Under the pieces are notes generated by a model that made no database searches, had not been told where the DNA came from, and saw only the letters and a list, made by a program, of their open reading frames with translations. A DNA stretch of 64,000 bases. Origin: an uncultured delta proteobacterium. Its GTDB lineage: Bacteria; Myxococcota_A; Polyangia; Polyangiales; Polyangiaceae. Location of the stretch: contig CAVQUB010000006.1 in NCBI GenBank assembly GCA_963716725.1, forward strand, positions 1 to 64,000, in the 5' to 3' direction. Positions 1 to 5,416 of the stretch are shown piece by piece. Position 1 is the first letter of the stretch; each line of letters opens with the position of its first letter. Made by a program: the position numbers and the translations under genes.

Positions 1-1050
1 CACGACGGCCAAGCACGAGATCCTGCGACGGTATCTCGCGGCTTGGTTCCCGATCCTCGGCACCCACCACGGCCGCATCGTCTACATCGACGGCTTCGCG
101 GGACCGGGCCGGTACAAGAAGCGGCGAGCCTGGGCTCGCCGACTGATCGCGCTCGACGTTGCCGTCAACCATCGCAAGTCGACTCACCGGCGAGATCGTG
201 TTCTGGTTCATCGAGGAGCGCGACGACCGGCTCGCGCACCTGAAGCAGGAACTCGCCGCGGTTCGCGTGCCGGCGCATTTCAAGGTGACCGCGGAGTCCG
301 GGACGCTTCCACGAGAAGTTCGGCGAGGTGCTCGACTCGATCGAGGCAGACAAGAACGCGCTCGCGCCGACGTTCGCGTTCATCGATCCGTTCGGCTTCT
401 CGGGGATCCCGTTCTCGCTTGATCGAGCGGCTTCTGAGCCACAAGCGCTGCGAGGTGTTCATCACGTTCATGGTGGACGCCATCAACCGATTCCTCGAGC
501 ACCCCGAGGACAAGGTGGTCCAGCACATCGTGGATGCCTTTGGTGGCGACGAGGCCGTCAAGATCGCGAAGGGCACCGGCGATCGCATCGTAAAGCTGCG
601 CGAGCTGTACCAGTCGAAGCTCTCGAGCGTGGCCAAGTACGTGCGCTTCTTCGAGATGCGCGACCGACAGGATCGAACGCAGTACTACCTGTTCTTCGCG
701 ACGAACAGCGAGCTGGGCCACCTCAAGATGAAGGAGGCGATGTGGAAGGTGGACCCGGACGGCGACTTCAGATTCTCCGACGCGACGAACCCCGACCAGC
801 TGGTGCTCTTCGAGGCCGATCCCACCAAGGTTCTCGCCGCGCAGGTCCGCGAGCGAGTTCCGCGCGAAGGGCACGGTCACCGGGTTCCAGGTCCGGACTT
901 CGTCGAGAACCGAGACGGCGTACCTCAAGAAGCACATGACGGGCTGCACTGAAGCAGGAGGAGGAGAGCGGGCACCTCAAGGTCGAACGAGATCAAGACG
1001 GACGGGAAGAAGCGTCGCGCAAACACCTTCCCTGACGAGAGCGAGGCTGA
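1..1050 (+). CDS. tcmP: Three-Cys-motif partner protein (TcmP family, methyltransferase-like); 5'-partial, several frameshifts
   Basis: Frame from base 1 reads [34 protein letters not shown]; later fragments [16 protein letters not shown] and [25 protein letters not shown] are typical of the family. Lies directly upstream of DUF5131. Confidence 0.85.
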
Positions 1051-1051
1051 C

Positions 1052-1821
1052 ATGGGCCTGAAGTCAGCGATCGAGTGGACCGAGTCGACGTGGAACCCGG
1101 TCACGGGCTGCACGAAGATCAGCCCGGGCTGCAAGCACTGCTACGCCGAGCGCATGGCCGAGCGGCTCCAGGCGATGGGCCAGCCGAACTACGCGCAACG
1201 GCTTCGAGCTGACGCTGCAGCCGCACATGCTGGAGCTGCCGCTGCGGCTGGAAGAAGCCGCAGACGATCTTCGTGAACTCGATGAGCGACCTGTTCCACG
1301 AGGACGTGCCGCTCGAGTTCATCCAGCGCGTCTTCGACGTGATGCGCCGGGCGCACTGGCACCGCTTCCAGGTGCTGACGAAGCGCGCCGAGCGCCTGGC
1401 CGAGCTCAGCCCGCGAGCTCGACTGGCCGCCGAACATCTGGATGGGCGTCAGCGTCGAGAACGACGACTACCGGTCGCGCATCGACGACCTGCGCGCGAC
1501 CGGCGCGCAGGTCAAGTTCCTCTCGCTCGAGCCGCTGCTCGGGCCGCTGCCCGACCTCGACCTGCGCGGCATCGACTGGGTGATCGTCGGCGGCGAGTCC
1601 GGGCCCGGCGCGCGGCCGATGGACGCCGCGTGGGTCGACGGACATCCGCGACCAGTGCCGCGAGCGCAGGCGTGCCGTTCTTCTTCAAGCAGTGGGGCGG
1701 CACGAACAAGAAGCAGGCGGGCCGAGTGCTCGACGGCCGAACGTGGGACGAGATGCCGCCGGCGCCAACCACGGTCGTGCCCGCGAAGCATTCGACGGGC
1801 AGGTCTCGCTCGCCGTGGTGA
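1052..1821 (+). CDS. DUF5131 (phage Gp37/Gp68-like, three-Cys radical-SAM-like) protein; frameshifted
   Basis: [29 protein letters not shown] (Cx6Cx2C), [36 protein letters not shown] and FFFKQWGG are spread over three frames. Confidence 0.9.
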
Positions 1822-1840
1822 CGTAGCCATGCGGCCGGAG

Positions 1841-1881
1841 CTGTTAACCGGCCCCTCTCGCCCGGCCCGACCTGTTAACCG
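1841..1881. repeat. Two 10-bp direct repeats CTGTTAACCG, 31 bp apart
   Basis: Copies at 1841-1850 and 1872-1881. Confidence 0.7.
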
Positions 1882-2040
1882 CTCTCTGCCGCTCTCGACC
1901 CGCGGGCACCTTCAGAGAGCACGATCGCGCCCCCGAGAGCCCGCCGTCGCGCGCGTCCGCGTTCTCAGGATCGCGCTCCGCGACCACGCCGCGAACGTCG
2001 CCCTCGCGCAGAACCCCGCGAACACTGGCGCTTTCAAGAC

Positions 2041-2070
2041 GAAGCCCCGCGAGTTGCCTCGCGGGGCCTC
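2041..2070 (-). terminator. Hairpin terminator downstream of tRNA-Asn
   Basis: Minus strand GCCCCGCGAG-GCAA-CTCGCGGGGC followed by TTCGTCTT. Confidence 0.65.
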
Positions 2071-2112
2071 CGTTAACTGCGCCACCACCTTCGGTTGGTG
2101 GTGGAAGAAGAA

Positions 2113-2188
2113 TGGCTCCAGCTCCTGGACTCGAACCAGGGACCCGGCGGTTAACAGCCGCCTGCTCTACCGACTGAGCTAAGCTGGA
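2113..2188 (-). tRNA. tRNA-Asn (GTT)
   Basis: 76-nt cloverleaf: acceptor stem TCCAGCT/AGCTGGA, anticodon arm GGCGG-CTGTTAA-CCGCC, T loop TTCGAGT, encoded CCA. Confidence 0.97.
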
Positions 2189-2199
2189 ATGGGGCCGCT

Positions 2200-2227
2200 A
2201 GCCTATTCAGGACGGCTTCACCGTCAA
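2200..2227 (-). promoter_or_regulatory. Sigma70-like promoter of tRNA-Asn
   Basis: TTGACG-N16-TAGGCT, with the -10 element about 11 nt upstream of the tRNA 5' end. Confidence 0.55.
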
Positions 2228-2234
2228 GCTGGAA

Positions 2235-3749
2235 CTACGGGCACTTGGAATAGCGGGCCAGAACCAGGTTCGCGCCGCTGCCGTAGACCCAACCCGCATC
2301 TCCGTTCGGGTAGGCGACGAAGTCGTCCTTCGCCCGGAAGGCACTGGTGACCGTGACCGGAGCGCCCACCGGGGCGCCCGAGTTGATGTCGAGCTCCTGA
2401 AGCGTTCGCGTGGTGCCGCTGCGCCACGCCGCGAGCAGGCGACCGTTGAACGCGACCAGGTGCGCCGAGTCGTCATCGACGGTGTTGCTCGTGAGCCAGA
2501 CCTTGGTGCTCGCGGTGCCCGTGCTGTCGAGCTTCGCCACGGCGATGTCTTTGTTGGGGCGGCCTTGAGGAGAGACGTAGCTCACCCAGAAGCCGCCGCT
2601 CACCGGCACGAAGCCGCCCAGCGCGGCGCCGCTCGTGCCCGAGCAGTTGCCCGTGGGCTCGTCCGAGATGATCTTGCTGTTGCTCCAGAGGATGGCTTTC
2701 TGGGAGTAGCAATCGGACAGGCACACCGGGCCGACCACGCTGCCGCTCTGGGCGAGGCGAACATCGAGGCTGTGACTGCATCCCCAGCTCCAGCCGCCGG
2801 CCGCCGCGCTGCCCGACAAATCGAGCTTCCGCAGCGTGTCACCGGTGTGGGCGATGTTGTCGGGCCAGCGCCGATAGATCGGGAAGTAGGCCGTGTAGCC
2901 CGCGCCGTTGAAGAGCAGTCGTCCGCCGTCGGCGAAGAACCCGCCGAAGGCGTACCACTCGCATCCGACCACGTTGTGATCGCAGCCGCCGGTCAGCGTC
3001 TTGTCGGCTGCCACGGCGCCGGCTGTGGAGAGCTTCACGAACACCAAGTGATCGGGGTTGCGCGCGACCAAGAGCCCGTAGCCGTCGCTCGACGCGGTGA
3101 AGCCGTGCACGTGCAGTCCGGGCACGCTGAAGTCCGCTCCGAGCTTGGTGCCCGCAGCGTTGACGCGGGTCACGTACACGTTGCCCGCGTTCGCCCACGC
3201 AATCGCGGTGTCGCCGCTCGGCATCACGGCCCCGTACATCGGCGTGCTGCCGGGTGATCCGGCGCCGGCGATGGTCTTCTCCGTCAGGCCGCCCGTGCAC
3301 GTTCCTCCGGTCCCGCCGGTCCCTCCGCTGCCGCCGGTTGCGCCACCCGCGCCACCCGCGCCGCCGGTTGCGCCACCCGCGCCGCCGCTCGCGCCACCCG
3401 TGCCTCCGCTCGCGCCACCGCTGCCACCGCTCGCGCCACCGCTGCCACCGCTCGCGCCACCGCTGCCACCGGATCCCGCGCCCCCGACCCCCGCGGCCCC
3501 GCCGTTCGGCGCGCCACCGAGCGATCCGCCCGACCCGCCCGCGCCGCCGCTGCCACCGCTCGCGCCGCCGCTGCCGCCGCTCGCGCCGCCGCTGCCACCG
3601 CTCGACGCATCGCTCGCGCCGCCGCTGCCGCCGCTTGCCGATGCGCCGCCGGTGCCGTCGAAGCCGACGTCGTCGTAGCCGAGGATGCTGCTGCACGCCC
3701 CCGCCAGCACCACCGCCGAGATCCCGACGAAGCGTGGTGCTCCCAGCAT
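2235..3749 (-). CDS. Secreted lipoprotein with Gly/Ser/Ala-rich linker and Cys-containing beta-rich C-terminal domain
   Basis: Lipobox VVLAGAC, about 130 aa of GGSGGAS repeats, then a globular domain with HTGD, WGCSHS and CLSDC. Confidence 0.75.
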   Translation of the reverse strand: MLGAPRFVGISAVVLAGACSSILGYDDVGFDGTGGASASGGSGGASDASSGGSGGASGGSGGASGGSGGAGGSGGSLGGAPNGGAAGVGGAGSGGSGGASGGSGGASGGSGGASGGTGGASGGAGGATGGAGGAGGATGGSGGTGGTGGTCTGGLTEKTIAGAGSPGSTPMYGAVMPSGDTAIAWANAGNVYVTRVNAAGTKLGADFSVPGLHVHGFTASSDGYGLLVARNPDHLVFVKLSTAGAVAADKTLTGGCDHNVVGCEWYAFGGFFADGGRLLFNGAGYTAYFPIYRRWPDNIAHTGDTLRKLDLSGSAAAGGWSWGCSHSLDVRLAQSGSVVGPVCLSDCYSQKAILWSNSKIISDEPTGNCSGTSGAALGGFVPVSGGFWVSYVSPQGRPNKDIAVAKLDSTGTASTKVWLTSNTVDDDSAHLVAFNGRLLAAWRSGTTRTLQELDINSGAPVGAPVTVTSAFRAKDDFVAYPNGDAGWVYGSGANLVLARYSKCP

Positions 3750-3825
3750 GGGTCGATGGTCGCTCCGACGGACGGTGCTGTCACGAGAATTGACGGCACC
3801 CCGCGCACCAGGCGACAAGGCCCCG

Positions 3826-5416
3826 GTGACGACGACGACCGAGAGCCCCGAACCGCCGACCACGCCGACCGCCAAGGCGACGGCGGACGTCGCGCGCACC
3901 GCGGGACGCGGCGGACTCGCCGTGGCGTTTGCCAAGGTCTATTTCATCTTGGTAGGTCTCGTGCAGCAGGTGATTCTGCCACGCGTGCTCGGCCTCGACG
4001 GCTACGGCGCGCTGTCGAGCGTTCTCAGCATCGCGAGCATCGCCTACAACCCCATCGTCTCGACCAGCATCCAAGGCGTGAGCCGCGCCGTCGCGCAGTC
4101 TCCGGACACCGAACAGCCGCAAGCCATCCGCCGCACGCTGGGCATCCACGCTCTGCTCGCGCTTCCGCTCGGCCTCGGCTTCTTCTTGTTGGCGCGGCCC
4201 ATCGGCGAATTGGCGGGAGCACCGCACCTGGTCGGCGCGCTGCGCATCATCAGCGGGGTGGTGGTCTTCTATAGCCTCTACACACCCTTCATCGGCGTGC
4301 TGAATGGACAGAAGCGGTTCCTGTGGCAAGCGGGGCTCGACATGCTGTACGCCACCATCCGCACCGCGGCCTTGGTGGGCGGAGCGCTGGTGCTCGCGGC
4401 GCCCTTCGGCGGCAAGGTCTCGGGCTCGGTTGGCGGCTTCGTCGGCGCCTCGGCCCTCATTTCCGTGATCGCACTCGCGCTTGTCGGCATCGGCAAGCGG
4501 GGCGCCGGCGGGCCGACGACCGCGCAGCACCTGTCGTTCATTGCGCCGCTGCTCTTCGGACAGATCCTGCTGAACCTGCTGCTCCAAGCCGACCTCACGC
4601 TGCTGCGCGCCTTCGCGGCGGAATCGGCGAAGGTGGCGGGCCTCGGGCCAGAGGCCGCCGATCCGCTGGTCGGCGCCTATCGCGCGACGCAGCTGTTCTG
4701 CTTCTTGCCGTATCAGCTGCTGCTCGCGGTCACCTTCATCTTGTTTCCGATGCTCGCCACCGCGCACCGCGACGGCGATCGCGACGCGGTGAAACGTTAC
4801 GTGAGCGCCGGGGTACGCCTCGCGCTCGTGCTGATGGGCCTGATGGTCAGTGTCACCTCCGGACTCTCGGGTCCCCTGACTGCGCCTGGTGTTCCCAGCC
4901 GAGGCCGCAGAACTCGGCGCGCGGTCGATGCAACTGCTCAGTCTCGGCTTCGGGGCCTTTGCCGTGTTCGGTATCTTGACCACCGCACTCAACAGCCTGA
5001 AGCGCGAGGTGGCGAGCATGGCCATCACCGCCGTCGCCTTCAGCTTGGTGGTCGTGCTGTGTTTCTTGCGCGTGCGCGGGACGGACTTCGGCGCGGAGTT
5101 GCTCTGGCACACTGCCACCGCGACCACCAGCGGGCTGGCGCTCGCGACGCTGGGCGCGGGCGTGCTGCTGCATCGTACCGCCGGCACCGTCGCACCCGCG
5201 GCGACCATCCTGCGCGTGCTCGTCGCCATGGCGCTCACCATCACGGTGGGCCGCTTCCTCCCCCACCCCGGCAAGCTGATGACGCTGGTCTACTCCGCAG
5301 GCCTCGGGGTGATCTACGTGGTGCTGCTCCTGATCACCCGAGAGCTCGGGAGCGCGGATCTCGCAACGGTCAAGGCCGTGCTCGCGCGCAAGGCACGGCC
5401 CGCCCCAGCGAAGTAG
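3826..5416 (+). CDS. MOP-superfamily oligosaccharide/lipid II flippase (Wzx/MurJ-like); frameshift near 4885
   Basis: RGGLAVAFAKVYF..PRVLGLDGYG, VGAYRA and ILFPMLA motifs; about 12-14 TM segments across two frames. Confidence 0.8.

Follow-up and report, generated by a model that had tools for sequence, protein, structure and literature searches.

A mobile TcmP-DUF5131 gene pair at a tRNA-Asn gene: a candidate DNA-base-modification module broken by probable assembly errors

Introduction

The first 1,821 nucleotides of contig CAVQUB010000006.1 (hereafter C6), from an uncultured delta proteobacterium of the family Polyangiaceae (assembly GCA_963716725.1), raise two questions: (i) whether the two neighbouring genes found there, which encode a TcmP-like protein with a methyltransferase fold and a three-cysteine DUF5131 protein, are working genes in spite of their many frame breaks; and (ii) what the two proteins do together. 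An initial annotation, made from the sequence alone, had presented them as a candidate DNA-modification or defence pair on a tRNA island. In this text, the window means the whole stretch of DNA analysed, i.e., the first 64 kb of C6, which belongs to a genome (G000) of 7.9 Mb in 35 contigs, with 68% G+C and 84% completeness.

On balance, we lean towards regarding positions 1-1821 as an ordinary, most likely intact, mobile TcmP-DUF5131 module of the PDC-M30 type, located at the tRNA-Asn-proximal edge of an island and with a role in the covalent modification of DNA bases in phage-host conflict. The window copy adds nothing new in kind to this catalogued pair and is useful mainly as a correction, namely that the locus is not decayed. 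The DUF5131 family is a different matter: it comprises as many as 41,566 clusters (50% identity) and is linked to methylation-based defence systems, so that an experimental answer on its chemistry would matter.

Results

Gene content of the locus

The following features can be differentiated in positions 1-2188 of the window:

2..1061, plus strand: TcmP gene of the long PDC-M30A type, including a winged helix at the C-terminal end (TIGR04474; PADLOC PDC-M30A; family consensus by eye for the C-terminal pieces)
1052..1821, plus strand: DUF5131 (phage Gp37/Gp68) gene, three-cysteine, with a modelled radical S-adenosylmethionine (SAM) fold (PF07505 on three fragments; PADLOC PDC-M41B/M30B)
1822..2112, no strand: spacer from the DUF5131-TcmP pair to the tRNA gene, with two strong hairpins on the minus strand
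2113..2188, minus strand: tRNA-Asn(gtt), start of the chromosomal backbone common to congeners

Both genes had been correctly named in the initial annotation. The TcmP model TIGR04474 matches positions 2-952 with 124.6 bits (cut-off 53) despite the frame breaks, and PF07505 (DUF5131) gives 76.4, 93.0 and 93.2 bits on three fragments within 1052-1821 (cut-off 28.9). When read through frames 2, 3, 1 and 2, the window TcmP is approximately 50% identical to family members, with the motifs YIDGFAGPG (about nt 83-109, frame 2) and FIDPFG (nt 379-396, frame 1). In DUF5131, a 12-residue motif at nt 1106-1141 includes Cys codons at 1109, 1130 and 1139, which form the Cx6Cx2C pattern. The two motifs quoted in the initial annotation, of 15 and 12 residues, are both present, and all family motifs are preserved in the two proteins. 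In PADLOC, the pair matches PDC-M30A (3e-27) and PDC-M30B/M41B (7e-28 and 2e-29), with the genes adjacent and co-directional, while in PHROGs DUF5131 corresponds to phrog_2045 (function unknown there) and TcmP has no match.

The two genes do adjoin each other, the DUF5131 start at 1052 falling directly after, or overlapping, the TcmP end. As for the previously reported distance of 1 bp, it exists in one frame only (TGA at 1048-1050, then ATG at 1052), and a TcmP end at the TGA of 1059-1061, overlapping the DUF5131 start, fits the family consensus better (by eye; indel errors blur the exact junction). At its 5' end, the TcmP gene is truncated by the contig start (window base 1 is C6 base 1), with around 17 N-terminal codons absent; no contig end in G000 encodes a W.L.PHT-like piece, and no other G000 contig overlaps window positions 1-2200.

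Frame breaks: assembly errors or decay

There are about 11 frame changes in the TcmP gene (partly by eye) and five in the DUF5131 gene, i.e., together around 16 in 1.8 kb. Such a number within so short a stretch, on which no reads could be placed, might indicate a decayed locus, with genuine frameshifts and two pseudogenes. Nevertheless, the genome's essential genes for RNA polymerase are equally broken: rpoB is split into 12 pieces and rpoC into 13, while each is a single open frame in the congener G002. In two overlapping alignments with G002 DNA, which cover about 5.9 kb of the rpoBC region, G000 has extra bases at 67 and 58 sites, nearly all of them single, as opposed to only 18 and 5 sites where bases are missing from G000. 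The indel density at the TcmP-DUF5131 locus is of the same order. In the rpoB-rpoC region (contig C3:9,000-18,000), the spurious inserts are mostly G or C and lie outside homopolymers.

The DUF5131 gene can be compared directly with those of two relatives, G002 and G026, to which it is 85% and 80% identical, respectively, at the DNA level. Against both of them it carries a single extra C at the identical five sites (1196, 1248, 1412, 1636 and 1658). Once these five columns are set aside, the gene has no stop codon, 80% amino acid identity over 244 codons and a ratio of nonsynonymous to synonymous substitution rates (dN/dS) of 0.29. Because rpoB and rpoC are equally damaged, the same five extra C's appear against two relatives, stops are absent, dN/dS is 0.29 and the motifs are kept, the frame breaks are, judging from these alignments, almost certainly +1 insertion errors of the assembly and not signs of decay; we consider it very likely that the organism itself carries an intact locus. 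Decay, which would have to explain why the events are nearly all +1, why all five in DUF5131 are C and why every motif is retained, is very improbable. The advice in the initial annotation to repair the frameshifts was, hence, sound. With roughly one spurious inserted base per 100 nt in the whole assembly, any pseudogene or frameshift call in G000 is therefore unsafe, and the completeness figure of 84% has probably been lowered by the insertion errors.

Second copy and linkage of the partners

The same genome has a second, intact pair on contig C8 (402,279-404,180; L009:10280-12181), in the opposite gene order: DUF5131 (250 aa) and then TcmP (378 aa). This TcmP reaches 214 bits against TIGR04474 and contains a C-terminal GMT-like winged helix-turn-helix domain (PF22560). 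The C8 and window pairs have a protein identity of about 55-70%. A tyrosine integrase lies around 7 kb upstream of the C8 pair.

To describe the linkage between the two genes, 80 loci with a TcmP of the M30 type were taken from a scan of species-representative genomes. DUF5131 is adjacent to TcmP and on the same strand in 67 of them (upstream in 48; downstream, as in the window, in 19); in three others it is adjacent and convergent, at 706 bp or at 6.4 kb, respectively. The 10 loci that are left have no DUF5131: in two, TcmP stands at a contig edge, and in the remaining eight the adjacent gene matches spore photoproduct lyase (SPL) and Radical_SAM models instead (four representatives scanned). 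One SPL-like partner is an 802-aa protein in which a MAD5/HsdS-like restriction-modification specificity domain is fused to an SPL-like radical SAM domain. The operon that encodes it (L104:4043-11101) consists of RadC, an N6-methylase with an HSDR_N domain, a 312-aa open reading frame (ORF), the 802-aa fusion and TcmP. There is also a natural 558-aa protein in which DUF5131 is fused to TcmP.

When all flanking ORFs within 7 kb were clustered over the 80 loci, no recurrent third gene was found; besides the SPL-like partners, the largest neighbour family was that of ABC ATPases (6/80 loci). Within the pair, DUF5131 is more conserved than TcmP, with a median identity to the C8 proteins of 58.8% vs. 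50.7% and the higher value in 58 out of 63 loci. The DUF5131 gene of G002, the one with 85% DNA identity to that of the window, is paired with a TcmP of the M41A type, and therefore the partner has been exchanged between close relatives. The neighbours of this G002 pair are an integrase, a tRNA-Thr gene, a 1468-aa SNF2 helicase and a type IIG-like protein.

Defence, phage and plasmid context

The proposal in the initial annotation that the pair is a defence candidate agrees with its identity as PADLOC PDC-M30/M41, in which A is TcmP-like and B is DUF5131. They come from "guilt by embedding" (Payne et al., bioRxiv 10.1101/2024.01.29.577857), in which genes located inside BREX, DISARM and type I restriction-modification systems are collected, and are described there as candidates. 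Elsewhere, a TcmP gene has been noted near hna in S. meliloti (PMC12445080), and TcmP genes have been counted in prophages of that species (PMC12429752).

In our set, 12 out of 80 TcmP loci are found within or next to Hma or restriction-modification genes, which include HsdM-type methylases, SNF2 helicases and DUF499 or DUF1156 proteins. Representatives of the SNF2, DUF499 and DUF1156 proteins match HmaA, HmaB and HmaC of the Hma system, the pair being located between hma genes. At L085:1795-10340, L067 and L075, the TcmP-DUF5131 pair is found between or beside hmaA, hmaB and hmaC.

The genes also travel on mobile elements. DUF5131 is present in 181 out of 50,697 phage records and in 433 out of 72,556 plasmid records, and an M30-type TcmP was found by tblastn in 10 Gordonia phage records. 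In one of these phages, ThankyouJordi (the one annotation read), the pair is flanked by the integrase on one side and the immunity repressor on the other, TcmP beginning 4 bp past the repressor gene. The integrase-repressor region of temperate actinobacteriophages is known for lysogen-expressed defence genes.

Structure of DUF5131 and its relation to spore photoproduct lyase

The C8 proteins served as queries for both structural models and for the searches. The DUF5131 model (48 sequences; predicted local distance difference test, pLDDT, 92.4) has a partial TIM-barrel radical-SAM fold, and radical SAM enzymes make up most of its top 25 VIA matches. At E<=1e-3, Foldseek gives six matches only, all of them SPL entries; VIA, which is independent of Foldseek, also places SPL first (Z 14.0, root-mean-square deviation 3.0, 196 residues), followed by viperin (11.7) and then by SuiB, lysine aminomutase and lipoyl synthase, with Cfr, MiaB and TYW1 among the lower matches. 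The radical-type chemistry suggested in the initial annotation is thus consistent with a modelled fold that comes nearest to SPL. Of the three cysteines, C27 and C30 show no variation among the 48 homologues, and C20 is retained in at least 90% of them. Scans with PF04055 (radical SAM) and with the SPL hidden Markov models (HMMs) gave no match to DUF5131. In RadicalSAM.org, DUF5131 belongs to Megacluster-5-2 and SPL to Megacluster-5-3 (PMC9477430).

Among the proteins P0245-P0390, many DUF5131 representatives with a length of 300-460 aa are matched discontinuously, in 3-4 stretches interrupted after about residue 115-120, which points to a shared site of insertion (of an intein or an additional domain). 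Two longer proteins, P0280 (711 aa) and P0288 (736 aa), were considered as TcmP fusions and rejected: their C-terminal extension of around 470-500 aa is not TcmP, and one of the two proteins has a weak match to N-formylglutamate amidohydrolase.

The closeness to SPL brings in a different function, namely that of a DNA-repair module in which DUF5131 would reverse a lesion by SPL-like radical chemistry while TcmP would find and flip the damaged base, carried by mobile elements to the benefit of host or phage. We consider this unlikely, albeit worth keeping in mind. It draws on the fact that SPL is the nearest solved structure, and that genuine SPL-family genes replace DUF5131 beside TcmP in 8/80 loci. 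On the other hand, a TcmP that is swapped between close relatives and less conserved than DUF5131 fits a diversification of targets better than a single, unchanging lesion to be recognised; the pair occurs inside Hma and restriction-modification loci; DUF5131 lacks the SPL HMM match mentioned above; and no LexA-like palindrome was seen upstream of the C8 pair (by eye; no formal scan run).

Structure of TcmP and its relation to RlmJ

The TcmP model (55 sequences; pLDDT 85.8) has a class I methyltransferase fold, and its best matches are members of the RlmJ/DUF519 family in two independent structure searches: (i) Foldseek, with E 3e-7 to 1e-6; and (ii) VIA, with Z 16.9 (2oo3) and 15.7 (E. coli RlmJ), the next family being at 14.1. 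The alignment with RlmJ covers approximately 207 residues, from model residues 7-9 and chain residues 5-9 onwards, so that the N-terminal motif X helix is included. The invariant residues of TcmP are K18-H19, D45/G46/G49/P50/G51, E85 and D142-P-F-G-W146, with YxDGFxGPGxY as motif I. The functional residues described for RlmJ are K18, H19, motif I, E118 and D164 of DPPY (PMC3814359), and those of TcmP match them by chain position and aligned ranges, not by residue-level superposition. The initial annotation had already recognised the resemblance to methyltransferases, which now extends to invariant residues at the chain positions of RlmJ motifs X, I, II and IV. In the Pfam scan of TcmP, the winged helix PF22560 was the sole match, with none to RlmJ/DUF519.

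These relatives also raise the idea of an RNA-modification pair, in which TcmP (like RlmJ) and DUF5131 (by analogy with the radical-SAM methylases of rRNA and tRNA) would modify rRNA or tRNA. The closest solved relatives of TcmP are indeed rRNA methyltransferases that produce N6-methyladenine (m6A), and Cfr, MiaB and TYW1 appear among the lower matches of DUF5131. Even so, this explanation seems to us quite improbable: RlmJ has an active site of the DNA-m6A type (PMC3814359), DNA is the substrate of the nearest DUF5131 relative, one SPL-like partner occurs as a fusion with a restriction-modification specificity (S-subunit/MAD5-like) domain, and the genomic company of the pair consists of DNA-modification systems.

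The island at tRNA-Asn

The tRNA-Asn gene and its right flank are collinear with three congeners (G001, G002 and G003; 74-82% identity), while window positions 1-2112 are not found beside the corresponding tRNA gene in any of the three. The pair was, hence, rightly placed on a tRNA island by the initial annotation, in the sense of an insertion at tRNA-Asn relative to congeners. In G002 and G003, the DNA to the left of tRNA-Asn corresponds to the interval at about 19-36 kb of G000 contig C15, ending at ars genes; in G002 the ars genes are 1.3 kb from the tRNA gene. Most simply, as gene order suggests, C15:1-18,990 and C6:1-2112 would together represent DNA, 21 kb or more in length, that was inserted at tRNA-Asn in one or several events and is split between contigs in the assembly. 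A comparison of the tRNA region with C15:1-21,000 for an att repeat gave only 9-15-nt matches at chance level, and the G+C content of the island is not deviant.

The probable left neighbour, C15:1-18,990 (L113), contains (i) two tyrosine-integrase ORFs (C15:641-1543 and 2609-4075); (ii) two RHH proteins; (iii) an amidoligase with two GGACT-like ORFs; (iv) serine-recombinase remnants; (v) MazF; (vi) sulfur-metabolism genes (cysteine desulfurase/rhodanese/DsrE); and (vii) a SWIM zinc-finger protein paired with an SNF2 (DUF3670) helicase. PADLOC reported only the helicase (generic models) and the cysteine desulfurase here, and no restriction-type partner was recognised in these 18,990 bp.

These data bear on the function that the initial annotation had preferred, i.e., that the pair writes a self-mark for a defence system, read here as one of restriction type, with its other genes left of the window. 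Its proposed inspection of that side for nucleases, helicases and an integrase does yield integrases and an SNF2 helicase in C15:1-18,990, but no recognisable restriction-type system. The 12 loci in or beside Hma or restriction-modification genes speak for such a self-mark, as do the SNF2 helicase and the type IIG-like protein beside the G002 pair. Against it, no third gene recurs in the 80 loci, where the largest neighbour family reaches 6/80; the left neighbour offers PADLOC nothing but generic helicase models and a cysteine desulfurase; and the ThankyouJordi pair has no annotated nuclease gene alongside (one phage locus). We therefore give little credence to the self-mark proposal, and the notion of the pair as one arm of a larger system was not borne out.

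As regards the remaining features, the spacer forms two strong hairpins on the minus strand, just downstream of tRNA-Asn (fold z = -3.59). Positions 1842-2119 are 91% identical in the genome of another genus, and the non-coding stretch 1842-2112 is about 72% identical beside tRNAs in several other genomes. In an Rfam scan of window positions 1-3000 the tRNA was the sole match, with none for the hairpins, and a promoter and terminator scan of positions 1-2400 found nothing exceeding chance. Beyond the tRNA gene, the minus strand at 2235-3935 has an ORF of 566 aa, conserved in congeners, in which a probable signal sequence is combined with an extended Gly/Ser-rich repeat region (GGSGGASGG...).

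Discussion

Proposed mechanism

Putting together folds, linkage and context, we propose a division of labour between the two proteins. Gene identities, folds, linkage, mobility and the erroneous nature of the breaks come from the data, whereas cluster binding, SAM cleavage, substrate, complex formation and biological role belong to the proposal. TcmP, as an RlmJ-like, SAM-binding protein whose methyltransferase fold is followed by a C-terminal winged helix, would act as the exchangeable recognition subunit, which may bind nucleic acid, most likely DNA, and present a flipped base. DUF5131, as the more conserved enzyme with a radical-SAM fold near SPL, is predicted to hold a [4Fe-4S] cluster at Cx6Cx2C and could then perform 5'-deoxyadenosyl-radical chemistry on the base offered by TcmP. 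The product would be a covalent modification of a DNA base that serves phage-host conflict. Such a module would be self-contained and made of two proteins, moving on phages, plasmids and islands and often landing in methylation-based defence loci. The order of events given in the initial annotation, methylation followed by radical modification, is pure conjecture.

In its strongest form, which we put forward only tentatively, TcmP and DUF5131 might constitute a two-subunit, DNA-sequence-directed radical-SAM enzyme, in which TcmP would select and flip the target base and DUF5131 would write a novel covalent modification on it, or else inflict a directed lesion on invading DNA. If this were true, it would represent a new chemical class of epigenetic mark, or a restriction-free defence, that phages, plasmids and islands have carried across many phyla.

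A number of observations weigh against a DNA-modifying role, or against parts of the reading in which it is included. With respect to DUF5131, its cysteine pattern is not the canonical CX3CX2C of radical SAM enzymes, and SPL is a repair enzyme, which gives some likelihood to a repair role. With respect to TcmP, hhalign against E. coli RlmJ gave a probability of 7%, with motif I alone aligned; the TcmP profile had no match among PDB sequences; motif IV is DPFGW and not (D/N)PP(Y/F/W); and RlmJ is itself RNA-directed, which gives some likelihood to an RNA substrate too. With respect to context, 68 out of 80 loci have no recurring defence-type neighbour, and a full-text literature search for a functional study of the DUF5131/TcmP family, or for a phage-protection test, found none. 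Finally, with respect to the locus, C15 and C6 are linked by synteny alone, without sequence overlap; the error-dense region sits at a contig end; and no public read run contains the stretch (best share 0.08, probably the tRNA).

In any case, apart from the modification of DNA bases, the possible alternatives can be ranked as repair, then an RNA substrate, and then service to a neighbouring restriction system. For experiments, the window copy is a poor starting point, and the intact C8 copy or a phage copy would be better.

Comparison with known systems

Four known systems can be compared with the TcmP-DUF5131 pair: (i) PDC-M30/M41; (ii) RlmJ; (iii) SPL; and (iv) the radical SAM mobile pair A/B.

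The PDC-M30/M41 candidates do not differ in kind from the window pair, whose proteins match both the A and the B models, whose genes are adjacent and co-directional, and whose long winged-helix TcmP is of the M30A type; the window copy is simply truncated at the edge of the contig and distorted by errors of the assembly. PDC-M41 is the sister of PDC-M30 and, these being candidates, membership brings no known function.

The RlmJ/DUF519 family (PDB 2oo3, 6qe5, 4blu), which includes the 23S rRNA m6A2030 methyltransferase of E. coli, is the best fold match of TcmP, with which it has in common, going by chain position, the N-terminal K-H, a G-rich motif I (YxDxxAGxGRY), an acidic residue in motif II and the Asp-Pro of motif IV. 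But while RlmJ acts alone and on rRNA, with DPPY as motif IV, TcmP has DPFGW and an extra C-terminal winged helix (PF22560), and there is no HMM-level sequence relationship between the two.

SPL (SplB; PDB 4fhc-4fhg) has the nearest solved fold to DUF5131, belongs to the same RadicalSAM.org megacluster, and its family members stand in for DUF5131 beside TcmP in 8/80 loci. DUF5131 is instead shorter (about 250 aa vs. 340 aa), carries Cx6Cx2C in place of CX3CX2C and does not match the SPL HMMs.

The radical SAM mobile pair A/B (NCBIfam TIGR04471/TIGR04470) is likewise a two-gene mobile module, to whose protein A DUF5131 is distantly related (5e-23, 81.7 bits). Nevertheless, this score is far under the cut-off of 355 bits, and the partner comes from a different family.

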